From a virus, in the IMG/VR virus record IMGVR_UViG_3300027754_000044: DNA of 64,000 nucleotides; one strand, given 5' to 3'. Shown piece after piece: positions 1,689 to 44,024 of the stretch. Positions within the stretch are counted from its first letter, which is position 1. Every line of letters starts with the position of its first letter. The notes beneath the pieces were generated by a model that searched no databases, was not told where the DNA came from, and saw nothing but the letters and a program-made list of their open reading frames with translations. Position numbers and translations under genes: made by a program.

Positions 1689-2396
1689 TTAGAACGCTTT
1701 AGAAACAGACACAACTACAGAATTTTTGTAGAGCTTTTCTGCAGAAATGGTATTTGCCAGTTGTGTGGCAGCTGTCATACCACGATTCGTGTAGTAATGA
1801 GCACCAACATCAAGACCAGCTAGAGCATACGTTGCGCCAACCTTAATGTCTGTGTAATTACTCGCTGAGTGATTAGCAACACTTGTTCGTCCTATATGAG
1901 CATTACCAGTCAATTTTGGCATGATTGGCATATTCAGATCAGCTTGCATATACTTCGTTCCTTTGCTATTCGCAACGGCAAAGTAATCACCAAGCGACTG
2001 ACTATACTTCAAGCTAATAGGACCAGTGGCCACTCCAGCATAAACTTCATGCGTATTGCTGACACTGTTGAAAGCATTACCTGAACGTGAGTAGTAATAG
2101 TTGTAAGAACCAACATCTACTGTTACGCCTTTAGCAACTTCTTTCTTAAATCCAGCATACACATCATTTTCCATACCAATACTGTCTGTGTATAGAAGGC
2201 TGCTGACGCTGCTATTCCAGTTACCAGCATAAAATCCACTCTTATCTGTATAATCAATTCCACCTTGGAGAGCTTGTGAATTTTGCGTTTGACTAATCCC
2301 ACGGAAACGATAGTCAGAAGTTACACCAACATTACCAGTAATTTGAGCTTGTGCAACGCCAGTTACGAACAACAGTGCAAAAATAATTTTTTTCAT
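1689..2396 (-). CDS. TorF family (TIGR02001-like) putative outer-membrane porin
   Basis: Signal peptide MKKIIFALLFVTGVAQA; TGNVGVTSDYRFRGISQT signature; amphipathic beta strands; C-terminal Phe. Confidence 0.85.
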   Translation of the reverse strand: MKKIIFALLFVTGVAQAQITGNVGVTSDYRFRGISQTQNSQALQGGIDYTDKSGFYAGNWNSSVSSLLYTDSIGMENDVYAGFKKEVAKGVTVDVGSYNYYYSRSGNAFNSVSNTHEVYAGVATGPISLKYSQSLGDYFAVANSKGTKYMQADLNMPIMPKLTGNAHIGRTSVANHSASNYTDIKVGATYALAGLDVGAHYYTNRGMTAATQLANTISAEKLYKNSVVVSVSKAF

Positions 2397-2463
2397 ATTT
2401 TTCTCCGATACATTAAGTTTAATTAAAACCATCATGGTACTCTATATATAATAAATTCTCAGT

Positions 2464-3453
2464 TTATTTTGGTAATTTAATAAAGTCCTCCCCCTTCGTT
2501 GAGTCATAACAAGATTTCCACCAATTATTGTAGAAATTACACACTTCATCGTATTTGAAAAGACTATGACTTGCTAATTTTATAGTTTTTCCAAGATCCG
2601 TGTCTTTATCCACTTTATATGTAACGCAGTCGTATTCTGATCTTCCAAATGTTACAACTGGAACCTGATGCAGAAGAGATTCGAATCCGACACCAGAATT
2701 TACAGTCACTGTGCAGCGAGCAGTTTGAATCAATTGATGGATGGATACATCATCATACCAAAAGACATGAAGATACTTTTTGGCAATTTCTTTCAATGAT
2801 TGCATGCTGCCAGGATTGACTGGATGGCCCTTTACCACCAAATTCATTCCCACTTCTTGAGTGGCTATACAAGTTCTTTCTAATGCTTCTTCCACAGTGA
2901 CGTTGGAATGAAATCTGATTGTCTCATCGTGAGGAATCTGGCAAGGAAAAAATGCATAGTAATCTGGCAGATTTATTTTTTCTCGACTCTGATAAACAGG
3001 CTGATCAAATTTACTCTGATTATCGTTCATGCGATTCTGAAGCATGCGGAAGATCTTAACTCCTTCTAGTGTATCGGATCCATCATTCTTGAATGGATAT
3101 TTAGATGATCCAGCTCCCCATCCTTTACTATCGACAGAGAACATCCACGGGAATGCAGTCTGCATGTAGTAATACACTTCGCAATTTTCTATAGGAAAGC
3201 TATGCGCTTCTTTATGCGGAACAAATAAAATGTCCGGCTTCAGTTCATTCACGAGTTCTGGAGTAAATTGCCAGAGCGGTAATTCTAGAACTTTGAATGA
3301 AATATCAGATCTGCTGGAGTATTCAGCTATGACACGTTCTACAAAATTTCTCCAGTGCTTTCTGATTGGAGGAATTGATCCAGTTTCAAACGGAACTGGG
3401 CCCTTCTTAAACATAACATCAAGTCTGGGTGACAGCAATAAAACTTTTTTCAT
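2464..3453 (-). CDS. Capsule polysaccharide biosynthesis (KpsS/KpsC-like) glycosyltransferase
   Basis: PCQIPHD, LVVKGHP and TVNSGVGFESLL..VVTFG motifs. Confidence 0.7.
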   Translation of the reverse strand: MKKVLLLSPRLDVMFKKGPVPFETGSIPPIRKHWRNFVERVIAEYSSRSDISFKVLELPLWQFTPELVNELKPDILFVPHKEAHSFPIENCEVYYYMQTAFPWMFSVDSKGWGAGSSKYPFKNDGSDTLEGVKIFRMLQNRMNDNQSKFDQPVYQSREKINLPDYYAFFPCQIPHDETIRFHSNVTVEEALERTCIATQEVGMNLVVKGHPVNPGSMQSLKEIAKKYLHVFWYDDVSIHQLIQTARCTVTVNSGVGFESLLHQVPVVTFGRSEYDCVTYKVDKDTDLGKTIKLASHSLFKYDEVCNFYNNWWKSCYDSTKGEDFIKLPK

Positions 3454-4217
3454 AACCAATATTCCTCAGAGAGTTTAGGAAATATATCATAATATCGTTT
3501 TTTCATAGCAAGATACTTCGGATTGCTGTATTTCCTATCTCCCTTTCCAGTCCAGATCGTGGTTCCATGAAGAAATTCCCAGTCCATAAAATCTGTTCCG
3601 AATGCAGTACATGAGTATTTAGTCTTGAAATGCTGATAGGAAACGCTCAATGCAGTCTGATCTAAGAACCATCTCAATTTGTTGTCTAAAATTATCTGAG
3701 CAGTAGATTCCAAAAAGTCTTTTGCAGTTTCTTTAACAAAGACTGCGCCTGCAGCGACTCTGGATCCTTCTCTTTCCCAATCATTCACGCCCGGAAGAGG
3801 CTCTCGAAGAAATATTCCAAGATCTGTATCAAGAGGATCTATGTGTGACATTATCAAACAATCAATGTCTGTGATTAACATCGGCGCAGTAATTATCGAA
3901 GAAGCAACAATGAATCTATTACAAGCGTAATATGTTCGTTTTTCTTCCTGAGAGATCGTTGGCAGTTCTGTATCCTCTGAAGATATAGTCATTTCACCAG
4001 ATGGGAACATACGTTTATATCCCATCTTCAACGTCTGCATATATGTCCAGTCATTTACGCTCGCATTGATCACATGAAGATGAACATTCATGTCTGCTTT
4101 AGCGCAAGAAGAAATATATGCTTGAGCATGATCTCTTAGATACTTAGGATCACATGATGTGAACAAACAAAATTTTCTAGGACGCTCACCAATAACATTC
4201 CAATTTATATTCATCAT
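3450..4217 (-). CDS. Putative GT-A fold glycosyltransferase
   Basis: YYACNRF, LITDID (DxD), VAAG, WFLDQ motifs. Confidence 0.55.
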   Translation of the reverse strand: MMNINWNVIGERPRKFCLFTSCDPKYLRDHAQAYISSCAKADMNVHLHVINASVNDWTYMQTLKMGYKRMFPSGEMTISSEDTELPTISQEEKRTYYACNRFIVASSIITAPMLITDIDCLIMSHIDPLDTDLGIFLREPLPGVNDWEREGSRVAAGAVFVKETAKDFLESTAQIILDNKLRWFLDQTALSVSYQHFKTKYSCTAFGTDFMDWEFLHGTTIWTGKGDRKYSNPKYLAMKKRYYDIFPKLSEEYWL

Positions 4218-4933
4218 CTGCCTATAAAATCATATATCACATCATTATTAACGACGTTTGGTTTGTGTCCTTCTTCTAAGATCTTATCGCGATAATCAAA
4301 CCAAAATTGGACTAACTCCGGACGAGGATGATTAGCAGTTTCTCCAGTATACCATTTCGGCATCCATGGCTGAGTGCTCATTCTAGAATAATGAAGTTGC
4401 CACATATCTTCTATTTTGAGATTATCTCCGTCTAGACAGTTCCATCTTGGATCAAGTTCCTTTACAACTTCACTTCCACTGAATGCGTGAATATATCTTG
4501 AATGAGATTCTGGGATGACTTTCATTCTTTCTATCGGAGCGACTTCTCCCTTCATGGCAGCACAGTCAATAACCATAACACAAAATTCATGTCCACCAAA
4601 TCTTGGACCAAGACGAGCGCCAACCCAGTTATCCTCAAGATCTGTATTCCATAGCTCATTGAGATCTCTGAAATTAATCATATCCACATCGGTGTAAATT
4701 GCACGACCCTCAAAATTACAAACTTCTGGTATTGCCCAACGATAGCCACTGAATGGAGTTGGCCAGCATGAAGTATTCCATCCGCCCCATACACTAGACG
4801 TATCATTCGTTTGACGCATCCATGTAATATCTATAGGAACTGAACAGTTTTTCTTTAAAGAATATTCATATACCATTTCTGCATCTGTGTCCTCACCATT
4901 AGCAGATGTCCCGATGAACAGTCTAATTGTCAT
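4214..4933 (-). CDS. Putative glycosyltransferase (GT8-like)
   Basis: TPFSGYRWAIP, AIYTDVDM (DxD), LDPRWNCLD, LHYS..TQPW. Confidence 0.7.
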   Translation of the reverse strand: MTIRLFIGTSANGEDTDAEMVYEYSLKKNCSVPIDITWMRQTNDTSSVWGGWNTSCWPTPFSGYRWAIPEVCNFEGRAIYTDVDMINFRDLNELWNTDLEDNWVGARLGPRFGGHEFCVMVIDCAAMKGEVAPIERMKVIPESHSRYIHAFSGSEVVKELDPRWNCLDGDNLKIEDMWQLHYSRMSTQPWMPKWYTGETANHPRPELVQFWFDYRDKILEEGHKPNVVNNDVIYDFIGR

Positions 4934-5519
4934 AATGAAATCTCCGATAGAACATTCCATTCATTTGCAAGAATGGTTTTTTCATAGATGATGTGTCTTT
5001 AATTTTAGATGTCATATCTGCATCGTAATAGAATCCACTAGCATTAAATGCACCTTCCCAATAATCTAGATTCCTACAGTTTACGTGATGATGTCCTGCG
5101 TAACCAGGAGGAGCAGCAGTAACCATCAAGAATTTGCATCGCTGAAAAGCATGCATGATTGCTGGAACATGTTTGGATTCTACGTGTTCTAGAAATTCTA
5201 CAGACCAGCCGAGATCAAATTCAATATCGTCGTTTTCCCAATTCAGAAACGGACCTGTCGTGAAGTCGTGGATATGAACATTTCGTCTGCGGGAAAGTGT
5301 ATAGTCTCCGTCTAAACCAACAGAATGTATTCCACGATCGCGAGCTAGATCTAACATTCCACCAGGCCCACATCCAATATCTAGCATTGTTGCGATGTCA
5401 AAATTTTCAATTAGAAAATCTAGAGCGCCTTCGTCTACATGGGTTTTATTTAGATGACCTCCAAGATGTTCTGGAAGTCCGTCATCCGATGGTGCAGAAT
5501 CAATTATATTAATTTTCAT
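4923..5519 (-). CDS. Class I SAM-dependent methyltransferase
   Basis: MLDIGCGPG motif I; FDLGWSVEFLEHV. Confidence 0.8.
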   Translation of the reverse strand: MKINIIDSAPSDDGLPEHLGGHLNKTHVDEGALDFLIENFDIATMLDIGCGPGGMLDLARDRGIHSVGLDGDYTLSRRRNVHIHDFTTGPFLNWENDDIEFDLGWSVEFLEHVESKHVPAIMHAFQRCKFLMVTAAPPGYAGHHHVNCRNLDYWEGAFNASGFYYDADMTSKIKDTSSMKKPFLQMNGMFYRRFHYDN

Positions 5520-5564: not shown

Positions 5565-5927
5565 ATGAGAAAAAAGAAAGAAAAGAAATCCTTTAAGGTC
5601 TATGTGACGTATTGGCCTGATGGAAAATTCTATATTGGATTCTCTTCGAAAAGTGGAATACAATATGAGAAATATTTTGGATCGTCAAAACTGATCTTAG
5701 ACGAACTAAAAAGAAATCCTAAATCACACGGCTTTACAAAAGATACAATCGGTGAATTTGAAAAAAGATCCCACGCTAGAGCAACTGAACATATACTTCA
5801 ATGGAACAACCGACTTAATCCGCTGATGAAAAATGATATGTGGAATGTTCGATTGCGTCTGAGCTATTTGAAGGATCTTTCTATTCCTAACTGGGTCGCG
5901 CCCACACCGAAGACCAATCTCCCGTAA
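5565..5927 (+). CDS. GIY-YIG family nuclease-like protein
   Basis: VYVTYWPDGKFYIG (GIY-YIG variant), YFGSS, later Glu and Asn; the only credible plus-strand CDS. Confidence 0.6.
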   Translation: MRKKKEKKSFKVYVTYWPDGKFYIGFSSKSGIQYEKYFGSSKLILDELKRNPKSHGFTKDTIGEFEKRSHARATEHILQWNNRLNPLMKNDMWNVRLRLSYLKDLSIPNWVAPTPKTNLP

Positions 5928-6882
5928 GAGCTCCCTTGGCATAGTCTGTAGCGCGATTTTCAAAGAAATTCGTATGCGTCGGAGCATTGATCATTTCTTC
6001 TACCCAAGGTAGTGGATTTTTCTTTACCTTGTAAATCCCGCGCATACCCATAGAAATCAATCTACGATCTGCGATATATTTAATGTATTCCTTTACTTCA
6101 TCAGCGGTGAGTCCGATGATACCGCCCGTCGAAAATGAAAGATCAATAAATTTATTTTCTAGTTCTACCATCTTTTCAGCGATCGCATATATCTTGGACT
6201 TGAGTTCATCGTTCCAAATTTCTTTATTTTCTTCGATATATGTTCGGAACAACTTAATCATCGATTCGGCATGCATGGTTTCATCAACGATCGACCAAGT
6301 AATTATTTGACCCATACCTTTCATTTTGCCGTGGCGAGTAAAATTAAGAAGCATAATAAAAGAGCTAAAGAGTTGCATACCCTCAGTGAACGCCGAGAAC
6401 GCAGCAATATTAGTAGCGACGGACTCAATGGTTCCATTCTTTCCTGAGAGTTCGAGGAAGTATTCATGCTTTTCTCGCATTTCTTTATATTCGAGGAAGT
6501 CTGCATATGTAGAGTCAGGCATTCCTAATGTTTCGATTAGATGAGAATATGCAGCTACGTGTAATGCTTCCCTTGCTGCAAATCCAAGTAGCATCATACG
6601 AATTTCTGGCTGTTTGAAATATGGCAAATAGTTTTGAACATATCCACCAGCGACGTCTAGATCCCCTTGTGTGAAAAATCTAAAGATCTGAGTTAAGAAT
6701 TGTTTTTCTTCTTTGGTTAGATTTTTTTTCCAGTCTTTAACATCCTCTGCCATTGGAACTTCTGAATGCAACCAATGAGATTGCTCATGCTTAAGCCATA
6801 CATCATAGGCCCAACTGTATGAGAAGGGTTTGAAGTGATCTCGTGAATCTGTTAATTTAGTCTTTACTTTTCCTGCGCTCAT
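5887..6882 (-). CDS. nrdB: Ribonucleotide reductase class Ia beta subunit
   Basis: FFTQGD, EALH..AY, EGMQLFSSF, DETMH di-iron ligands; NFFENRATDY tail. Confidence 0.96.
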   Translation of the reverse strand: MSAGKVKTKLTDSRDHFKPFSYSWAYDVWLKHEQSHWLHSEVPMAEDVKDWKKNLTKEEKQFLTQIFRFFTQGDLDVAGGYVQNYLPYFKQPEIRMMLLGFAAREALHVAAYSHLIETLGMPDSTYADFLEYKEMREKHEYFLELSGKNGTIESVATNIAAFSAFTEGMQLFSSFIMLLNFTRHGKMKGMGQIITWSIVDETMHAESMIKLFRTYIEENKEIWNDELKSKIYAIAEKMVELENKFIDLSFSTGGIIGLTADEVKEYIKYIADRRLISMGMRGIYKVKKNPLPWVEEMINAPTHTNFFENRATDYAKGALTGDWSSVWARPS

Positions 6883-7112: not shown

Positions 7113-8429
7113 TTAGTCAAAAACTTTTGGAGAATATTTATAAAGTAGTTCGTAGACGTCCGGTAAATTTTTCTTCCAATCATGATTTCGTAATTTGTCT
7201 AATTTATCCATATTAGTGACAAACTCACGAATTATGTTAGGATCATAACTATTCATAAAAGTTTGTAAGAAGTTAATTTGTGTTTGATAAATGTTTTTTG
7301 TTAGATCGTTAGAAGCAGAATTTTTCATAGAAGTTAATTCACGAATCATTTGCATTTTAGAACCAGGCGACATATACTTCAAACTAAGCCAATTTGGTCC
7401 CTCCATATATCTAAAAAAAGTTTTACAGTTTAATTCTTCAGCCAAAGGAATTATTCTAGAAGTCACATAAGGCGAAGCTACTCCAATACAACTCGTGATT
7501 GTCATATTGATATTAATATTGTGTTTTTTATCTTTCATGGATAAAATATTTTTGATATTGTCCAATACGACAGCATATTTTCCTGGATTTCTAATTAATT
7601 CGAATCGTTCTTCTGTATCGTCTACACTGGCTGCAATAGAAATACCTTTAAACTTTTCAAATTTCTGTATGATATTATCGTTAATCACTGACATGTTGCT
7701 ATCGTATTGTAGAGTTATATTTTTTGAAACTCCTGCGTCAATAAGTCGATCCAAACATTTACCCATCGCTGGAATTAAAAATGGTTCTCCACCAGTAAAA
7801 TACATAGAACTCAAAGTAGGTACAACTTCATCGAACTTTTTCCACCATTGATCAGTTTCCCACCACGGAAATGATTTTGCATCATACTTTCCATTACTAT
7901 TCAATAGTATTTCGTAAATGCTACTTCCTTTATCAAATTTCGTAGTTCCATACAATTCAACATGATCATCAGCCCACAAATGACTATGTTTTGGTCCACA
8001 CATAATACACTTAAAGTTACAAATATTTCCGAGACGGAGACTTAACATTTTAATTTTCGAAATATGTGTCAACGAACCATCGTTCTTTGTATATAGATGA
8101 GCTTCATTCGCTTTTACATAATACATTCTTGATAGATTCACAAGACGCTTTGTCGTAAGACTTTTTGCAGCCTCTTCCTGATAACAAGTCTTACATCTTT
8201 CAGGTTTTATATTATCTTTCAATAGAAGTCTGTGAGCGTTATGTGTAGGACTATTGATCGCTTCGTAAATAGAATGCGTCATGATATTCATCTTAACGCC
8301 ATCTTGAGTCATCGCTACACCAAAATTTGCATCAGAATTGGCTAGACAACATATTTTGAAATCGCCCTGCTCGTCGATTTCAATCGCGTTATATAATTCC
8401 GGACAAAAACTTTCTACATTAAATGCCAT
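7113..8429 (-). CDS. Radical SAM protein with an N-terminal twitch/SPASM-like Cys cluster
   Basis: CNFKCIMC (CxxxCxxC), FTGGEP; N-terminal C, CC and CxxC. Confidence 0.85.
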   Translation of the reverse strand: MAFNVESFCPELYNAIEIDEQGDFKICCLANSDANFGVAMTQDGVKMNIMTHSIYEAINSPTHNAHRLLLKDNIKPERCKTCYQEEAAKSLTTKRLVNLSRMYYVKANEAHLYTKNDGSLTHISKIKMLSLRLGNICNFKCIMCGPKHSHLWADDHVELYGTTKFDKGSSIYEILLNSNGKYDAKSFPWWETDQWWKKFDEVVPTLSSMYFTGGEPFLIPAMGKCLDRLIDAGVSKNITLQYDSNMSVINDNIIQKFEKFKGISIAASVDDTEERFELIRNPGKYAVVLDNIKNILSMKDKKHNININMTITSCIGVASPYVTSRIIPLAEELNCKTFFRYMEGPNWLSLKYMSPGSKMQMIRELTSMKNSASNDLTKNIYQTQINFLQTFMNSYDPNIIREFVTNMDKLDKLRNHDWKKNLPDVYELLYKYSPKVFD

Positions 8430-8430
8430 A

Positions 8431-10215
8431 TTAACCTTCGCAAGCTAAACAGGAATCCCCATCAACAAGTTGTTTCAGATCAATTTCGTCGATCACTTGT
8501 CGTTCAATCTTCTTTGCGACTTTGTCAGCTTTACCAATTTTCTCAGAACGGCAATAATACAGAGTCTTCAATTTTTGTTTCCATGCTTGGAAATGGACTG
8601 CGTGGATATACTTTATATTCGAATTTGGTCGAAAAAATAGGTTAAGGGATTGTGACTGATCAATATAACTCTGTCGGTCAGCTGCGTGCTCCACAATCCA
8701 TCTTTGGTCAATCTCCATACTCGTTTTGAAAACATCCCTCTGCCAGTCGTCGAGAATGTCAAGGTGCTGGACTGATCCATCGTTTGCAATGATAGATGAC
8801 CAAACTTCGTTGTAGTCCAAATCTTTATCGGCATCACATTTATCCTTTATAATTTTATCAAGATATTTGTTTTTATTCAGAGAAGCGCCAGACATCGTAT
8901 CTTGACGATACGCATTGGCTCTAAACGGCTCGATTGATGGAGATGTATTTCCCATGATAATTGAACTTGATGCATTTGGTGCAATTGACATCAGATGTGA
9001 AAGTCTTAGACCCGTTCCTTCTGCATCTGGGGCAGTTCCTCTTTCTGTTCCTAATTCTAAATTCGCTACATCTAATCCTTCTCTGATGTGTTTGAACATT
9101 TTTAAATTTTTACTTTTTGCTAATGCGCTTTCAAATGGAAGGTTATTTTTCTGAAGATACGCATGAAATCCGAGAGCTCCAATTCCTATGGAACGTTCCC
9201 TCTGTGCTGAATACTTTGCGCGTTTAATTTCTTTAGGTGCATTGTCGATGAAGCATTGAAGAACGTTGTCTAACATTTCAGCAACGTCTCTCAAAAATTG
9301 TTTATTCTTTTTCCATTCGTCAAAATACTCTAGATTCAATGACGATAAACAACAAATCGCTGTTCGCTTTTCGTTTGTTGGAAGGATGATTTCTGAGCAG
9401 AGATTCGATTGATGAACGCGAAGTCCTCTATCACTCAACCACTTTGGAAGCTTGCGATTAGATTCATCAATGAAATGAATGTATGGCTCTCCGGTTAGCA
9501 TTCTCATTTCTAATATACTTTGCCAAAGAGCTTTAGCTGATACTGTCTCACGAATTTCTTTTGAGTGAGGATCGACTAAATCCCACTTATCATCGAACTC
9601 TGGATCAATCATGCAGTTTTCGATAATCTGCATAAAGTCATCAGTGATATTAATTCCATGGTGCATGTTTTGGCAACGAACGTTCAGATCACCAGTAGGC
9701 TTGCGCATATCAAGAAAAGAAATAATATCGGGATGATTAATATTAAGATAAGCAGCATAAGACCCACGGCGAGTGCGACCTTGGCGATAGGCCAAAGAAC
9801 TAGCGTCGTAAATTTTAAGATGAGCCATAACACCAGTAGACTTATCGTCAGCACTGCGAATACCGAAACCGATTCCAACACCACCTCCCATCATAGAAAG
9901 CCAATTTGTTTCTGATAAATTTTCGACTAAACCTTCCGCAGTATCTTCAATATAATTAAGGTAACATGATACAGGAAGGCCACGGCCACTATCATCATAA
10001 GAAAGAACGGGAGTAGAATAAGATAACCAATGCTTACTAGAATAATCATAAAGACGTTGAGCATGATCCGAATTACTTCCAAAAATTTTGGATACATATG
10101 CAAACCTTTCTTGAGGCGATTTCTCATCTTTCTTCATGTATGACTCTTTTAACCGCTTGATACCCAGCTCGTCGAATAAATTGTCACGCGAATAATCTAT
10201 CTTAATTTCCGACAT
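8431..10215 (-). CDS. nrdA: Ribonucleotide reductase class Ia alpha subunit
   Basis: SNLCSEI, CCLSSLN, APNASSS, TLYYCR, C-terminal CLAC. Confidence 0.96.
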   Translation of the reverse strand: MSEIKIDYSRDNLFDELGIKRLKESYMKKDEKSPQERFAYVSKIFGSNSDHAQRLYDYSSKHWLSYSTPVLSYDDSGRGLPVSCYLNYIEDTAEGLVENLSETNWLSMMGGGVGIGFGIRSADDKSTGVMAHLKIYDASSLAYRQGRTRRGSYAAYLNINHPDIISFLDMRKPTGDLNVRCQNMHHGINITDDFMQIIENCMIDPEFDDKWDLVDPHSKEIRETVSAKALWQSILEMRMLTGEPYIHFIDESNRKLPKWLSDRGLRVHQSNLCSEIILPTNEKRTAICCLSSLNLEYFDEWKKNKQFLRDVAEMLDNVLQCFIDNAPKEIKRAKYSAQRERSIGIGALGFHAYLQKNNLPFESALAKSKNLKMFKHIREGLDVANLELGTERGTAPDAEGTGLRLSHLMSIAPNASSSIIMGNTSPSIEPFRANAYRQDTMSGASLNKNKYLDKIIKDKCDADKDLDYNEVWSSIIANDGSVQHLDILDDWQRDVFKTSMEIDQRWIVEHAADRQSYIDQSQSLNLFFRPNSNIKYIHAVHFQAWKQKLKTLYYCRSEKIGKADKVAKKIERQVIDEIDLKQLVDGDSCLACEG

Positions 10216-10238
10216 TCTTAACTCCAATATTGTTATTA

Positions 10239-10901
10239 TTAATTTACAAATTCTGTGATCATCGGAAATATAGATTCCAAGGCATATGCACATTCCAAAG
10301 CAATTAGTCTATGTTCTTTTTGAGTTTCAGGACCACTTCGTAGTTGTATATAGTGAATCCAAGAACGGATCGATCCAGTCATATACAATTTCGATTCGAT
10401 CAATCCTTCTGGTAAAACAGCACGAGCCTGTTCCTTGGCAATTCCTTTGCGTATAGCCCAACGATATGTTTTAATCGCTGCGTCCATAATATAACTCTGT
10501 TGAGTTTCCCAGTTCGAATTCAGAGCAATATCATCCGTCTCAATGCTATTCTGTCTGTTCTTAGAATCTTGCAGTCGTGCTTCACGTGTTACGAAATTCA
10601 AATCTTTCGTCGGATCAGCATAACGCTGACTAAATTCCTGAAAGCTAAAAGAACGATGACGAAGAATCTGACGCGCAATATCTCGAGTTGTCGTAATTTC
10701 TAAACACGCAGTGACCATTTCAAATGGAGACCAATGATTATTCTTAATGAGATAGCGAATAAGTTTTTCATTCGTTTCGGTGTTATTCTGATTACTTGGA
10801 TTTGAAACACGTGCACAAAACGCTATGATATCCAACAAGGAGTTTCCACTGCAGCGACATCCTTCTGGTTGTTGCGAATAAGATATAAGTGAAACTGTCA
10901 T
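10239..10901 (-). CDS. thyX: Flavin-dependent thymidylate synthase
   Basis: HWSPFE; RQILRHRSFSFQEFSQRY ThyX motif. Confidence 0.96.
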   Translation of the reverse strand: MTVSLISYSQQPEGCRCSGNSLLDIIAFCARVSNPSNQNNTETNEKLIRYLIKNNHWSPFEMVTACLEITTTRDIARQILRHRSFSFQEFSQRYADPTKDLNFVTREARLQDSKNRQNSIETDDIALNSNWETQQSYIMDAAIKTYRWAIRKGIAKEQARAVLPEGLIESKLYMTGSIRSWIHYIQLRSGPETQKEHRLIALECAYALESIFPMITEFVN

Positions 10902-27346: not shown

Positions 27347-28234
27347 TTATTTTTTCGTTTTTGTTACAGTGACGTCTGGCATTTCCATCCAATTCTTACC
27401 ATCTGTCGCTACAGCGTTTGCGTTGCTCTTGAACCACTTCTTAGCTTCCATAGAATATTTATTAGAAATATCTGTCGGTTTGGATTTTTGAGAATAATTA
27501 ATATTGGCAGAAACTATGAGTAATAAAGCCAATGGGTCTAATACTAAAACCAAAGCAATGATCATAAATCTTACGGCCTTCTCCAATATTTCTTTATTAG
27601 ATTCTCCGTAGATCAATTCAGCTACATAACGAATTGGTCCGACTTCTTTTTCGGCCGCCCGTATCTCTTTGGCTAGTGGCATCTTTTCTGTCTGAAGTTC
27701 ATCAATAGATTTTTGTGCATCCTTGATTTCTTTGTTTATCAACAGCCGTTCTTTTTCTTGGCTCTTTCTGTAACGCAATCCTTGTTCTGCATCTTTATCA
27801 GAAATGATTTTATTGACTGCAGAATCTAATTGTTTAAGCGCAAGTGCACTAGTATCTATACGACTCTTTTCTCTTTCTATTTTAGAGTCTATCATTTCAA
27901 TCTTAGACTGAAAGTCGCCTGAAGACAGATTCTGGTCTATATGTGCTTTGGAAAGGAAACCAAAAACACCCATACTTGTAATGAACATTAATATAGTGAC
28001 AGCAATTGAAAAATATGTTTTCATCAGTAGCGGTAAGATACTCCAGTTTCTATACAGATACGAAGCTGTAATAATTTTACCTATTTCTAGAGTAGTTCCC
28101 ATTATGATGATGGGCCAAAACGATGCAGAAAATATAGCAGCCAATCCAGTTATAGCATACCACGCGGATACAAATGAAAGTGTAATCCCTGTAAAAATTG
28201 CTAATGATCTGTCTATATTAGGCTTCAGCTTCAT
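27347..28234 (-). CDS. Membrane protein with a coiled-coil domain
   Basis: 3 N-terminal TM helices, TSMGVFGFLSKAH, coiled coil, EVGPIRYVAE, C-terminal TM. Confidence 0.7.
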   Translation of the reverse strand: MKLKPNIDRSLAIFTGITLSFVSAWYAITGLAAIFSASFWPIIIMGTTLEIGKIITASYLYRNWSILPLLMKTYFSIAVTILMFITSMGVFGFLSKAHIDQNLSSGDFQSKIEMIDSKIEREKSRIDTSALALKQLDSAVNKIISDKDAEQGLRYRKSQEKERLLINKEIKDAQKSIDELQTEKMPLAKEIRAAEKEVGPIRYVAELIYGESNKEILEKAVRFMIIALVLVLDPLALLLIVSANINYSQKSKPTDISNKYSMEAKKWFKSNANAVATDGKNWMEMPDVTVTKTKK

Positions 28235-29033
28235 ATAAACTTCTTCCTAGTTTATTCCAATCGCGACATATATCCATAATTCGAATTCGTTTCTTAAAAT
28301 TAATTCTATCATTTTCTAAAAGACTTTCGAACAACTTATCTATATTGGAACCTAATTGCAAATTTATATGCTTCTTAAACTTACCAATCAGTTTAAATTC
28401 AGAGAATGCGGTTACTACGTGATGTTTCTGGAATGGTTTATTTAGTTCATACCAGTCATACTGTCGGAAAAAATCAATCACATTTTTTTCTAAGTAAGGC
28501 GCAATGATTTTTTTATCGTATTGTTTAGCTAGAATTTTTTGCTGAATCAGACCAGCTGGATTCTTTTGTGCAAAATAATCTACGCGAAATTCATCAAATT
28601 TAGATTTTGGTGTTTTGTAATGGATACATGCTTTCTTAGAAACGCCATAGTGACCATCAGCTGCAATTCCAGAAATTACTTCAAATTCCTTGATCTTCGG
28701 ATACACATATAGAAATGGGAATGTGCATTCGAAGTGAGTTTTCTTTTTGCATTCAATATCTGTAGCTAGATATATGAAATCGCTCTCTAGATTTTTGGCA
28801 GGAACTTCAATTAGAGTATACTCCCAATTCATAATCTTAGCGACTTCAATTGCTTTCATTGCGTCATAAGAAGGGTCGTTTTCTAAATGAAACGTATATA
28901 CGTGAACCTTCTTACCTAACCTATGCGCAGAGAAAGCACAAGAGATACTATCAACTCCACCAGACATTAAGACCGCTACAGAGTCTGATTTGGAATGTTT
29001 CTGTATCTCATTGCATAATAACTGATCAATCAT
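28218..29033 (-). CDS. Asparagine synthetase C-terminal-like (PP-loop) ATP-dependent enzyme without a glutaminase domain
   Basis: VAVLMSGGVDS; ISGIAADGHYG (cf. AsnB SGEGADELFG); APYL. Confidence 0.75.
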   Translation of the reverse strand: MIDQLLCNEIQKHSKSDSVAVLMSGGVDSISCAFSAHRLGKKVHVYTFHLENDPSYDAMKAIEVAKIMNWEYTLIEVPAKNLESDFIYLATDIECKKKTHFECTFPFLYVYPKIKEFEVISGIAADGHYGVSKKACIHYKTPKSKFDEFRVDYFAQKNPAGLIQQKILAKQYDKKIIAPYLEKNVIDFFRQYDWYELNKPFQKHHVVTAFSEFKLIGKFKKHINLQLGSNIDKLFESLLENDRINFKKRIRIMDICRDWNKLGRSLYEAEA

Positions 29034-29402
29034 TTAGCCTCTTGTGATAGCTAATACTGCATCCAATTGTTTTTGAACTACTGGACCGCGATTTGGCCAC
29101 AGGATATATTCTTTATCTGCAGTCTTCAGGAGATTATTTAGAAGCGGAACAATGATTGCTTCTAGTTTTCGAATTTTATCTTTCAACTGCGCTTCTGTTA
29201 TATTTTCATCTCCACGTTCTTCTAACTTAAATACCAACGACGTCAGAGCATCAATTTTTTCTTCAAGACGCTGAACATCTTGAGAAGGAACGATATCATT
29301 AGTTGTTGTAGGTTCGAGCGGTCTTATAGCACTTTCGTCGATAGCTGAAAATCCATAATCTAATGAAAGATATTCTGCGGGAACTACTGCGTGTGTGGTC
29401 AT
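29034..29402 (-). CDS. Conserved phage hypothetical protein
   Basis: DYGFSAIDE; LEAIIVPLLNNLLKTADKEYILWPNR. Confidence 0.65.
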   Translation of the reverse strand: MTTHAVVPAEYLSLDYGFSAIDESAIRPLEPTTTNDIVPSQDVQRLEEKIDALTSLVFKLEERGDENITEAQLKDKIRKLEAIIVPLLNNLLKTADKEYILWPNRGPVVQKQLDAVLAITRG

Positions 29403-29410
29403 ATTAATCC

Positions 29411-31912
29411 TTAAAAAAAGTTTTCTAGAGACGAAATCGGTTCTTCTTTCCAATGAATCACGTTCAATATAGATCTCAGTGGATCTAGAAATGCCTTCTC
29501 AAATTGTAAATCGTAGTCAATGTATGCGTTCATTTTAAATTCTTTTGGAAGAACAGATACGATCGATAAAATATTCTCCTGCAATGGATTTGGCATTTTC
29601 ATGTAGCAGTATTTTATTTTCTCGCCATCCTTGATCGACTCATATTTCTTTGTTAGCTTGTAATCTTTCAGAGCTTTATTGAAGGATATCGCACCACGAA
29701 CTGCAATTGGTATAGCTTTCGTTTCCTTAGAATAATATTGAACATTCTGAACGCTTCTCGGAAACGATATATCCTCAAATGGTAGAGTTTTAAACTTCTT
29801 CTTAAACTCTTTGATGTGTTCTTGAATACGTTCTTCGCTATGATTCATGATAATATTCAGCGATTCCGTTAAGGCTACTCTACAACTAGACGGAGTCGAC
29901 GATTTAACAGTTTCTACGCCCATCATTTTCAATTTTGGTTTTTCGTAACGAACGCCTTCACTATCATAAACATTCAGGATATATCTTTTCTTAGCTGTCC
30001 ATATTCCTCTATCGGCGATAACTTCTCGCTTCATGTTCATTTTCTGTTGGAACGCACCACACCTTTTAGCAAGTTTCTCATAAATATCATCAATGACAGG
30101 TTCAAACTTCTCACGTGCAACCCTATCCAAGAATTCGACAATTCTTTCTTTAGAAATATCGTCTCTATCCTTGAACACACTTCGCACAAGCCCACCAAAA
30201 GTAATATATAAGCTGTCTGTATCGGACGCAATAACATAATCAATATCATTTGTTTTTAATAATCTATTTATATAGATATTCAAATGATTTTCTGCCCAAC
30301 GAATAGCCAACTGACCACCCATGGTAATTGCAGTTGCGTGATCTATGTCGAAGAATCTAAAGTATTGATTACCAATCGCGCCATAAGCACTATTCAGTTG
30401 AACCTTTCTAGCCAACTGGATATTTTTGAAGCGTGATATTTCTTTAGAATACTTTTTCTTCTCTTCTGGAGTTTTTGCTACTTCGTATTTCTTTTGAGAA
30501 GCGATCATCTTCTCTTTATAGATCGTTCTATCTGCATAGAGCCTTTCCATAATCTCAGGAAGAAACCCCTGCTTATCATTCTTAAAATAACTACCATTTG
30601 GTGCAAGACAATATCCATTGATAAGAGGAAGCTGACTATCACTTAAGAATTCATCTATCGTGATGTTAGCTTTTTTACCCTTGAGCATAGTTTCTGGAGA
30701 AATATTATACTGCATGATCAAGTGTGGATACAATGAATTCAAGTCAAAAGACATTACCCAGTCACTCGATCCTACTTGTGGATCCTTAACATACGCACCA
30801 ATAAACTGCTCTGATTTGTGTCCTCCACCAGAAAGAGGAATGGCGATCTTCTTTTTATATAGATGATTGTGAATGATAACATCCCACATCTTAACCTGTG
30901 TAAAGGTATCTGCCATATTAACTTTAGCATCATACGCCAGAGTTAATACCATCTCAATAAGTTTCATCTTATCGTCTAGCTTATCTACAAGCTCAACGTC
31001 TCGAATATTATAATTGATGTAATTGACGAAATCGTTTTCATAGAAGTCGTGAATAGTTTCATAGCCTAGTTCGTGGAAATCTAATTTCTTTTCACCAAGT
31101 TCAACAAATGCTATATGATCTAGACGATATGATTCTTGTTGTGTGTATGTAAATTTCCTATACATCTCTAGATAATCAAGGACGGCAACACCTACGATGG
31201 TTATCAGTATGTGTTCCTTTCCCATAACTTTAGTGGTTTTCTCATTCACATGCTTCCATGGCGAAAGGCGTTTACATTCTTTTTCATCTAGAACATTACG
31301 AATACGATTTACCAGATACGGAATATCAAAGAAAGATACATTCCATCCAGTCAAAATATCTGGCACTCCATAGCGTTCCCATTCATCCAAGAATGCCATC
31401 AGCAGATGTCTTTCATTCTTACAATGGATATACTTTACATCGTCGCGTTCTGGTTCATAATTATTACAACCAAACACATAGAAAGTTTTGTCTTTTTTGA
31501 GCGTGATTGCAGTAATTTCTTCGCTCGCAGAATTTACGTTTGGAAATCCATTTCCGGCATAGACCTCAATATCGATATTAGCGATTCGAATTCTATCAAT
31601 ATCGTATACAACTTCATTTCGATATTCTTCATTCAGCCACGCATATTCGTATCTGGAAAATCCATAGATTGGAAATCCAGTAACGTCTTTATAATTGTCG
31701 ATGAAGTTTTTAGCTTCTGTAACAGAATCGAACTCTAATGGTTCTAGAGCTTGCCCTTCGATACTAGACCAAAACGCTTCTGATTTATTTTTGGCTGGAA
31801 TAAATAGTTTTGGTTTATAGTGTATCTTTTTAGAGAATGCCCCGCCGTCATCATATCCACGAACAAGAACATTATCGCCCCACAGAATAGCTGATGTGTA
31901 AAATTTGCTCAA
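29411..31912 (-). CDS. gp43: Family B DNA polymerase (T4 gp43-like)
   Basis: Exo DIEV and GWN..FFDIPY; SFDLNSLYP; KVQLNSAYG; SDTDS; TTG start. Confidence 0.97.
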   Translation of the reverse strand: MSKFYTSAILWGDNVLVRGYDDGGAFSKKIHYKPKLFIPAKNKSEAFWSSIEGQALEPLEFDSVTEAKNFIDNYKDVTGFPIYGFSRYEYAWLNEEYRNEVVYDIDRIRIANIDIEVYAGNGFPNVNSASEEITAITLKKDKTFYVFGCNNYEPERDDVKYIHCKNERHLLMAFLDEWERYGVPDILTGWNVSFFDIPYLVNRIRNVLDEKECKRLSPWKHVNEKTTKVMGKEHILITIVGVAVLDYLEMYRKFTYTQQESYRLDHIAFVELGEKKLDFHELGYETIHDFYENDFVNYINYNIRDVELVDKLDDKMKLIEMVLTLAYDAKVNMADTFTQVKMWDVIIHNHLYKKKIAIPLSGGGHKSEQFIGAYVKDPQVGSSDWVMSFDLNSLYPHLIMQYNISPETMLKGKKANITIDEFLSDSQLPLINGYCLAPNGSYFKNDKQGFLPEIMERLYADRTIYKEKMIASQKKYEVAKTPEEKKKYSKEISRFKNIQLARKVQLNSAYGAIGNQYFRFFDIDHATAITMGGQLAIRWAENHLNIYINRLLKTNDIDYVIASDTDSLYITFGGLVRSVFKDRDDISKERIVEFLDRVAREKFEPVIDDIYEKLAKRCGAFQQKMNMKREVIADRGIWTAKKRYILNVYDSEGVRYEKPKLKMMGVETVKSSTPSSCRVALTESLNIIMNHSEERIQEHIKEFKKKFKTLPFEDISFPRSVQNVQYYSKETKAIPIAVRGAISFNKALKDYKLTKKYESIKDGEKIKYCYMKMPNPLQENILSIVSVLPKEFKMNAYIDYDLQFEKAFLDPLRSILNVIHWKEEPISSLENFF

Positions 31913-42111: not shown

Positions 42112-42816
42112 CTATTTTATTGCTAAAAATCCTACAAACGCATGGTTTTGCCAAAAAGATTCAATTTTGCTAAAACCTGCAGCTTTGCACATATTTAGTA
42201 ATTCTTTACGGGTGTTTGGTTTAGCCATCGACCGCAAAGTTTTTTCTTTATCCATAATATCGTCAGTTGTGAAACTTTTTCTTTTATAGTCGTAATATGT
42301 AAAAGTTCTAATATCTTGAATTTTTGCAGAGTCCGCCATGGTCTTCTCAGAAAAAACGAATGCACCACCGGAATTTAATCCATTATATACATTTTTGATA
42401 ACTTCCATTCGCTGATGCGGTGGCATAAACATCAGAGTGAAGATCGAAGAAACGAAGGAACAATTTTCAAAATCATAATCTCGAACATCAATATTGTAAA
42501 AATACAAATTTGGTATGAAATTTTCTTTCGTTGAAGACGTCCATTCATCTGACCGTTTCGGCCATTCTTCAGCGAATTTTTCTTCTAGTTCAATTCCAAT
42601 ATACGATGCTCTTTTAGAAAAAGAATTTTGATTGATCATAGTTTTCAACATTTTTCCAGTAGAGCAACCAATATCAACGACTTTTGTATCATCTTCCACA
42701 AAATATTCTGAAAGTTTCAATACATCGTCTATAAGATTAGAATACCCTCGTATAGACAAATCTATGTGTGTATCGAATCCTTCAGAACGTTGTGCGAATG
42801 TAAAAGGTTGTGTCAT
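42112..42816 (-). CDS. cmoA: CmoA-like carboxy-S-adenosylmethionine synthase
   Basis: FD.HI..SIRGY, DIGCSTG, SIFTLMF, LNSGGAFVFSEK, DYKR, AGF..IESFWQ...F..FLAIK, colinear with CmoA. Confidence 0.8.
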   Translation of the reverse strand: MTQPFTFAQRSEGFDTHIDLSIRGYSNLIDDVLKLSEYFVEDDTKVVDIGCSTGKMLKTMINQNSFSKRASYIGIELEEKFAEEWPKRSDEWTSSTKENFIPNLYFYNIDVRDYDFENCSFVSSIFTLMFMPPHQRMEVIKNVYNGLNSGGAFVFSEKTMADSAKIQDIRTFTYYDYKRKSFTTDDIMDKEKTLRSMAKPNTRKELLNMCKAAGFSKIESFWQNHAFVGFLAIK

Positions 42817-44024
42817 GATATATCCTTGTATGGTTTCAATATATTTTTATAAACGTGGCTTGCTAAAGCGAACATCATCTTCGGAGCAACCATTCTTCCG
42901 ATGCGCTCTGCTTGTTGATCGAAAGTTCCTGTCAATTCATAATCATCAGGAAGGCTCATTATACGCTTCAATTCTTTAATTGTCAACTTGCGATCTTCAT
43001 TATAATGTATAACGCCCGATGCACCTTTTTGTTGACCTGTCTGTGTTAAAGTCGGACACGGAAGATGTCGAGCTGGTCGTTTCAAATTGAAACAAGTTTC
43101 TTTTGGCTGAAGAACTTTAGGTGGATTTTTTGGTAACAAACCCACAAACTTTTTCAGGAACCCATTTTCAACAACATCTAATAGTTCTTTCACTTCTTGT
43201 GGGTCATTAACTATATCTCCAATCGCTTTTTCTATAGCAACTTCTTTAGAATATTTTCCATGTTCTTTCGGAGTAGATGGGTTTGGAAATACCACGCTAT
43301 TGACATTTAAAATGTTCAATCCGATTGAATTAGCAACATCATCCCTCACACAAACAAAGAACGTTCTTTGTCTACTCTGTGCAACTCCATACTCTGCAGC
43401 ATTCAATACTTTATATGTGGTAAGATATCCGATCTTTTCGAATCCATTAATGAACTCAGCTAATTTAGCTCTAGCTGTATCCATTGTTAATCCCTTCACA
43501 TTTTCAGCAATGATCACTTTAGGTTTTATATCTTTCGCGATCCTAATAAACTCATTGAAAAGATCCTCAATAGCTTCTACTGTCTTCCCGTCAGAATACG
43601 ACTTTATGCCAGAATGAACTTCAATCGAACCTTCGTGGATCATCTCTCCGTCATCATCAAAATATGATTTTCGAGTATCTAAAATTGCGCCCTTCCAATT
43701 CTTTCCTTTAGACGAAGAAGAAACAGAAAATGCAGAACACGGAGGCGAGCCATCAAATATATCTAATTCGCCTTCTTTTAACCCAGATACATCAAGAAAA
43801 TCTTTTCCAGAAAGTTTTTTTATATCACCTGGAATAATTTTAGTGTCTGGGAAATTTAATGAATATGTCTTAATAGCTTCCTCAACAAATTCATTTATCG
43901 CAAGAACATTTCCACCAGCCAAACGATATCCAGTAGATGATCCACCTCCACCAGCAAATGTAGAAATTACAGTGAATAATTTTTTCGATGATTCTGAAGT
44001 AACATCACTTTTAAAGTATGGCAT
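42813..44024 (-). CDS. C5-cytosine DNA methyltransferase homologue (predicted carboxymethyltransferase)
   Basis: Motif I FAGGGG, IV GSPPC, VI ENV, VIII QSRQR, IX RKLT..E..R; motif X is GRMV rather than GNxV. Confidence 0.9.
   Translation of the reverse strand: MPYFKSDVTSESSKKLFTVISTFAGGGGSSTGYRLAGGNVLAINEFVEEAIKTYSLNFPDTKIIPGDIKKLSGKDFLDVSGLKEGELDIFDGSPPCSAFSVSSSSKGKNWKGAILDTRKSYFDDDGEMIHEGSIEVHSGIKSYSDGKTVEAIEDLFNEFIRIAKDIKPKVIIAENVKGLTMDTARAKLAEFINGFEKIGYLTTYKVLNAAEYGVAQSRQRTFFVCVRDDVANSIGLNILNVNSVVFPNPSTPKEHGKYSKEVAIEKAIGDIVNDPQEVKELLDVVENGFLKKFVGLLPKNPPKVLQPKETCFNLKRPARHLPCPTLTQTGQQKGASGVIHYNEDRKLTIKELKRIMSLPDDYELTGTFDQQAERIGRMVAPKMMFALASHVYKNILKPYKDIS

Follow-up and report, generated by a model that had tools for sequence, protein, structure and literature searches.

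What use has a phage for a carboxy-S-adenosylmethionine (carboxy-SAM, Cx-SAM) synthase whose gene overlaps that of a DNA cytosine C5-methyltransferase (MTase)? The question is raised by a stretch of 64,000 nucleotides from the IMG/VR virus record IMGVR_UViG_3300027754_000044, the whole of which we call the window, where the two genes lie together at positions 42112–44024. On the basis of comparison with characterized homologues we conclude, with a probability of about 0.88, that the window carries a copy of the phage CmoA–CmoX–CmoY pathway of cytosine hypermodification in an uncultured T4-like myovirus.

The pathway is known from Synechococcus phage S-B43, whose proteins are termed SpCmoA, SpCmoX and SpCmoY (Yang et al., Nat Commun, 7 Dec 2025; PMC12783734). 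SpCmoA converts S-adenosylmethionine (SAM) and prephenate into Cx-SAM with a kcat of 2.33 per s, compared with 0.23 for the Escherichia coli enzyme, a difference of about tenfold. SpCmoX, which accepts Cx-SAM but not SAM, carboxymethylates C5 of cytosine at GC sites and so generates 5-carboxymethyldeoxycytidine (5cxmdC). In its structure at 1.9 Å (PDB 8YF3) the carboxymethyl group is contacted by Arg350, which replaces Asn304 of HhaI. Carboxymethylation of DNA blocks digestion by HhaI. SpCmoY is an asparagine-synthase-like, ATP-dependent ligase that adds glycine, and the virion DNA of S-B43 contains only the resulting glycine amide (5gcxmC), with 5-carboxymethylcytosine (5cxmC) undetected (PMC12783734). 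A sequence-only reading of our locus had cautioned that related phage systems might already be in print, and it was right to do so. Natural 5cxmC, the switch from Asn to Arg, the supply of Cx-SAM by a phage and the glycine amide are all described in that paper of December 2025 (PMC12783734), and the window adds no new principle to them.

The elements of the proposed pathway in the window are as follows, with protein lengths in amino acids (aa).

42813–44024, minus strand: cmoX, encoding a homologue of the DNA cytosine C5-carboxymethyltransferase (403 aa), identified by PF00145 and its match to 8yf3_A
42112–42816, minus strand: cmoA, encoding a carboxy-SAM synthase homologue (234 aa), identified by TIGR00740, 4GEK, SpCmoA and phrog_4752
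42813–42816, minus strand: the 4-nucleotide ATGA overlap of the cmoX stop and the cmoA start, read from the junction sequence and indicating translational coupling
42894–42896, minus strand: codon AGA of CmoX Arg377 in motif X, the predicted binder of the Cx-SAM carboxyl group, aligned with Arg350 of 8YF3
43737–43739, minus strand: codon of CmoX Cys96, the catalytic nucleophile within SPPC, aligned with SpCmoX Cys98
28218–29033, minus strand: cmoY, encoding a homologue of the ATP-dependent amide ligase (asparagine-synthase C-terminal or PP-loop type, 271 aa), found by tblastn with SpCmoY

In the pathway that we propose, CmoA would make Cx-SAM from SAM and prephenate of the host. CmoX would flip the target cytosine out of the helix, with Cys96 attacking C6, and would then move the carboxymethyl group from Cx-SAM onto C5 while Arg377 holds the carboxylate of the cofactor, giving 5cxmC. 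CmoY would convert this into the glycine amide as the final base, and phage DNA so modified would resist the restriction endonucleases of the host. The gene anatomy, the homologies, the conservation of catalytic and cofactor-binding residues and the layout are read directly from the window, and the chemistries are those known for homologues of 51–52% identity. By analogy with these we infer that the window copies share these activities, that GC is the target, that the amine is glycine and that the modification is protective. The earlier reading had proposed a phage that supplies itself with Cx-SAM and whose MTase writes 5cxmC as an anti-restriction or anti-CRISPR mark; on an anti-CRISPR role we found no evidence in either direction. 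The core chemistry of that proposal holds up, having been shown for 51%-identical homologues, with Arg377 falling on Arg350. Its choice of 5cxmC as the final mark does not. Because a CmoY homologue is present, and because the virion DNA of S-B43 contains only 5gcxmC, 5cxmC is probably an intermediate and the final base probably the glycine amide.

The cytosine C5 enzyme and the predicted carboxy-SAM synthase

CmoX is assigned to the C5 MTase family by PF00145 (4.7e-53). Its motifs I, IV, VI, VIII and X are FAGGGG at aa 23, SPPC at aa 93–96, ENV at aa 174, QSRQR at aa 216 and GRMV at aa 376. The sequence-only reading had described a C5 MTase with FAGGGG, PPC, ENV and QxRxR motifs overlapping a CmoA homologue by ATGA, and we find the open reading frames (ORFs) and motifs just where it placed them. 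It had also read motif X as G-R-M-V, and the AGA codon of Arg377 bears this out exactly. A Shine-Dalgarno-like element, AAGGA, lies upstream of the ATGA junction.

The match of CmoX to 8yf3_A, which is SpCmoX with Cx-SAM, extends over the full length (E = 3.2e-113), with 51% identity. Alignment with this structure places Arg377 on Arg350 and Cys96 on Cys98. Four residues of SpCmoX that contact the adenine and ribose of Cx-SAM (Phe25, Glu47, Phe48 and Asp69) are identical in the window enzyme, as Phe23, Glu45, Phe46 and Asp67. The Glu of ENV (aa 174) and the Arg of QSRQR (aa 216), contacts of cytosine N4 and O2, are likewise present. Yang et al. searched for CmoX by SPPC together with an Arg corresponding to SpCmoX Arg350 (PMC12783734), and the window enzyme has both. 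By analogy with SpCmoX and with the phage MTases linked to TET enzymes, the target of CmoX is probably GpC. If this specificity holds, the potential targets comprise 21.6% of the cytosines in the window.

SPPC and Arg at motif X are found in all of the 120 closest homologues listed (58–100% identity), these being the best of 5,717 matches with E values up to 1e-10. Because all 120 have this Arg, sequence comparison indicates that its occurrence in CmoX is not due to chance. With all 120 of the listed homologues at least 58% identical, the lineage of the window is a very common one in the environment; several of those listed lie on contigs of 150–190 kb.

A basic residue in place of the motif-X Asn, and carboxymethyl transfer to cytosine C5, are also features of M.MpeI N374K, a parallel to which the authors of PMC12783734 draw attention. 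M.MpeI N374K is an engineered enzyme that has Lys and targets CG, whereas the window CmoX is natural and has Arg, and natural CmoX targets GC (PMC12783734). Beyond the common PF00145 fold the two are only distantly related.

CmoA matches the NCBIfam model TIGR00740 over its full length (E = 8.9e-33, 113.9 bits), and the E. coli CmoA structure 4GEK, again over its full length (2.1e-24), with about 31% identity; 4IWN matches at a similar level (~1e-24). With the assayed SpCmoA it shares 51% identity, and its match to phrog_4752 is at 7e-60. Tyr39, Asp62, Gly64, Ser66 and Phe137 of E. coli CmoA, which bind the SAM moiety, are all identical in both the window CmoA and SpCmoA. The window system thus shares with the E. 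coli CmoA/CmoB pathway for uridine-5-oxyacetic acid (cmo5U) in tRNA a homologous Cx-SAM synthase with five cofactor-binding residues kept; the acceptor is tRNA in that pathway and would be DNA in the window system. Among cultured phages, the nearest CmoA is that of the freshwater cyanophage Synechococcus phage S-CRM01 (HQ615693.1:115915-116917; 54.7% identity), where it adjoins an annotated DNA-cytosine methyltransferase; a text search of the main text of PMC12783734 found no mention of this phage.

The motif-X residue and its neighbours

From clusters formed at 50% identity we took the best 150 representatives and mapped by pairwise BLAST the residue aligned to Arg377 in each. Of these, 104 have Arg, 32 Asn, 4 Leu and 2 Lys, with Tyr, Met and Asp in one each; 5 were unmapped. 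In a tree from which the motif-X column had been removed, the window CmoX groups with SpCmoX (support 98) inside a clade in which all members have Arg. The motif-X label is strongly clustered on this tree, yet Arg and Asn have been exchanged at least about ten times, in a tree made with FastTree only and with sampling biased to relatives of an Arg-type query.

The earlier reading had suggested comparing motif-X Arg with the presence of a cmoA neighbour. When this was done, cmoA was found beside the MTase gene or one gene away in five of six independent Arg-type lineages (the window with L003-L007, L008/L009, S-B43, L016 and L017). In the four relatives of other types whose flanks could be read (Asn in L011 and L013, Leu in L019 and L020), cmoA is absent from these positions, and the two Asn-type relatives stand in integrase or second-MTase contexts. 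A hand-calculated Fisher exact test on this small sample gives p ~0.02. The sixth Arg-type lineage is a C5-MTase (WERLGRAVPP) on a 35.7-kb phage-like contig (L018:8001-9047), where no homologue of CmoA is encoded in the 8 kb to each side. This enzyme may depend on the CmoA of the host or on a phage copy encoded further away. Since host CmoA can supply Cx-SAM (PMC12783734), an Arg-type MTase that lacks a cmoA partner in the phage is no refutation of the proposed mechanism. Our small sample of lineages agrees with the large survey of Yang et al., in which the contigs of 5,615 candidate CmoX proteins (SPPC and Arg) carried 4,257 CmoA and 2,251 ligase genes (PMC12783734).

The Leu-type relatives (IGLMVAP) point to a different chemistry. 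Phage clusters are known in which a C5-MTase that favours GpC is accompanied by TET, a dioxygenase of 5-methylcytosine (5mC), and a glycosyltransferase (Burke et al., PNAS 2021, PMC8256090). On two metagenome contigs (L020:242-6446 and L019:455-3896) the Leu-type MTase gene is followed by genes for Tet_JBP and a glycosyltransferase (AGT or TAGT). Like the window system, such clusters begin a post-replicative modification of cytosine with a phage C5-MTase, and the MTases are 37–41% identical. In the TET clusters, however, the MTase uses SAM and has Leu at motif X, and the handle for further modification is a hydroxyl rather than a carboxyl group. The TET cluster of L020 occupies the same slot as the window cmoX, after gp46 and peptide deformylase. 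This slot appears to hold interchangeable cassettes for cytosine hypermodification, either Arg-type with CmoA or Leu-type with TET and glycosyltransferase, and comparison of these sister phages suggests a hot-spot at which such cassettes are exchanged. The residue at motif X could then serve as a predictor of the modification chemistry of a phage.

The putative ligase gene and the probable final base

The sequence-only reading contained no ligase. A tblastn search of the window with SpCmoY reveals a homologue with 52% identity over 267 aa (E = 8.6e-79). At 271 aa it is equal in length to SpCmoY. It has the PP-loop SGGVDS at aa 24–29 and matches PF00733 at 1.7e-7, and no glutaminase domain is present. 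A sequence search of the PDB with CmoY gave no match. The gene lies between those for the gp43 polymerase and UvsX, on the same strand as cmoX–cmoA and 13 kb away. We considered the flanking ORFs at 29034–29453 and 27347–28234 as further pathway genes and rejected them; neither has a Pfam or PHROG family or resembles an enzyme, and the latter encodes a predicted membrane and coiled-coil protein.

The separation of cmoY recurs in relatives. A related 80-kb IMG/VR contig (G001) has a 90%-identical copy 16.6 kb from cmoX, in the context gp43-orf139-cmoY-orf295-uvsX as in the window. In close relatives of the window (92–100% CmoX identity) the neighbours of cmoX are peptide deformylase and cmoA, with no cmoY beside it. 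In this lineage, then, the separation of the genes is stable. A 191-kb contig (L008) whose CmoX is 63% identical has the order gp46, 57-aa ORF, peptide deformylase, cmoY, cmoX, cmoA, CobT-like. As the genes of the pathway need not be contiguous, surveys confined to neighbouring genes will undercount ligases and mispredict the final base. In another Arg-type cassette (L017:8001-11232) the ligase gene between cmoX and cmoA encodes a 477-aa protein of GATase and Asn_synthase domains; ligases of this glutamine-hydrolysing type are predicted to make a simple amide (PMC12783734).

Set beside S-B43, the window thus has three full-length homologues at 51–52% identity, with the SPPC Cys, the carboxyl-binding Arg and the Cx-SAM contacts kept. 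Both CmoA proteins have Glu at the position of E. coli Arg199, both ligases have a PP-loop without a glutaminase domain, and both phages are T4-like myoviruses. The two differ in that S-B43 has contiguous cmoX-cmoY-cmoA, whereas in the uncultured window phage cmoX and cmoA, overlapping by ATGA, lie between peptide deformylase and cobT-like genes, apart from cmoY. They differ also in the CmoX loop that follows the PPC motif, which is about 20 residues longer in the window enzyme.

Several observations weigh against our interpretation. The identity to the characterized enzymes is only about 51%, and the window phage is known from sequence alone. The score of CmoA lies below the equivalog cut-off of TIGR00740 (193.3 bits), although the same shortfall is to be expected of SpCmoA, an assayed enzyme. 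The target-recognition region of CmoX is only moderately conserved and differs from that of SpCmoX, and in the phmmer alignment the stretch after the PPC motif (about residues 104–135; 43620–43715) has 35 residues against 15. With the recognition region diverged and this loop longer, the GC specificity of CmoX is not assured. The position of cmoY apart from cmoX–cmoA is unlike that in S-B43 and L008, and homology is the sole tie of this gene to the pathway. Lastly, Arg199 of E. coli CmoA, which is described as the main residue holding the carboxyl group, through a salt bridge with the carboxylate of the cofactor (Byrne et al. 2013; PMC3663124), is replaced in the window protein by Glu191.

The last of these points loses its force on comparison with SpCmoA, which also has Glu at this position (Glu188). 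Both phage proteins have an Arg four residues further on, Arg195 in the window CmoA. Because SpCmoA is active with the same Glu and the same displaced Arg, the alignment indicates that the Glu is a trait of an active phage CmoA clade and no defect, and that Arg199 is not required there. The sequence-only reading had correctly observed that the carboxylate-binding Arg was replaced, with an Arg one turn later, and the doubt that it raised over CmoA on this account is now resolved. A text search of PMC12783734 found no mention of Arg199. Lys192 and Arg195, near Glu191, are conserved in the phage CmoA clade.

The alternatives concern chiefly what becomes of the carboxymethyl group. CmoA and CmoX could act as proposed while 5cxmC is itself the final base or is converted to an amide of some amine that is not glycine, CmoY having another substrate or belonging to another pathway. 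The placing of cmoY outside the cassette, inside the replication module, would fit this, as would the division of known ligases into clusters with distinct pocket residues and the finding of only 2,251 ligases for 5,615 CmoX contigs (PMC12783734). The largest of these clusters, of glycine type, coheres at 1e-56 (PMC12783734), and the window CmoY matches SpCmoY at E values of about 1e-79 to 1e-87, far beyond that threshold. It also has the length of SpCmoY, lacks a glutaminase domain, and has been kept, 90% identical, by a relative in which cmoX–cmoA is likewise retained. We therefore regard a different fate of 5cxmC as unlikely, though it is a more serious alternative than a role of CmoA in tRNA modification. 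In the latter case the MTase would be an ordinary SAM-dependent 5mC enzyme and CmoA would serve cmo5U, for example in a phage tRNA-Ser(UGA). The window does contain six tRNA genes, among them Ser(UGA), the E. coli counterpart of which carries cmo5U34. The established role of CmoA is in tRNA modification (PMC3663124). Against this, tblastn with E. coli CmoB finds no homologue in the 64-kb window, cmoA is translationally coupled to the gene of a DNA enzyme and tracks Arg-type MTases across lineages, Arg377 stands at the carboxyl-binding position of CmoX, and wild-type SpCmoX takes only Cx-SAM and not SAM (PMC12783734). The absence of CmoB, the coupling and the rejection of SAM by SpCmoX together make this the least probable of the explanations that we considered.

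It has been raised as an open question, with reference to the tenfold kcat of the phage enzyme, whether CmoA might drain the SAM pool of the host (PMC12783734). Such a drain would act against defences that depend on SAM (BREX or SAM-AMP signalling, for example), and DNA carboxymethylation would be secondary. This would be compatible with the pathway proposed here, yet the tight coupling of cmoA to the gene of an Arg-type transferase, together with a ligase retained downstream, suggests that Cx-SAM is wanted as a cofactor. We consider it very unlikely that draining SAM is the main function. A more far-reaching proposal would combine a base that has not been described, either a non-glycine amide of 5cxmC or a product of carboxymethylation outside GC, with a slot for interchangeable cassettes in which the motif-X residue predicts the chemistry. 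A base of this kind might arise, given that the ligase gene has left the cassette, the CmoX loop is longer and the recognition region has diverged. In its entirety we hold this proposal to be unlikely, and our preferred reading remains that the window specifies the CmoA–CmoX–CmoY pathway.

The phage and the other genes of the window

The gene content of the 64-kb window indicates the source to be a T4-like myovirus. There are T4-type homologues of gp43, gp44, gp45, gp62, RegA, UvsX, UvsW, gp41, gp46 and gp47, a capsid gene that matches annotated major capsid proteins, and genes for ribonucleotide reductase, and the assignment is based on these sets together. Megablast (24 kb) revealed no close DNA relative among sequenced phages, the only matches being short ones of about 70% identity within the capsid gene.

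The cmoX and cmoA genes form part of a co-directional and mostly overlapping run comprising gp46, a 2-oxoglutarate- and Fe(II)-dependent (2OG-Fe(II)) oxygenase, a 71-aa ORF, peptide deformylase, cmoX, cmoA, and CobT-like and CobS-like genes.

The tRNA genes form a cluster on the minus strand at 281–1107, specifying Ser(GCU), Asp(GUC), Ser(UGA), Lys(UUU), Gln(UUG) and Gly(UCC). A radical SAM protein of 438 aa, with a SPASM-domain match at its N-terminus, is encoded at 7113–8429, between the genes for the small (5887–6882) and large (8431–10293) subunits of ribonucleotide reductase. A block of surface-polysaccharide type at 1689–5519 contains Gcw_chp (PF09694, 5.7e-50), Capsule_synth, a GT8-like glycosyltransferase and a small class I methyltransferase.

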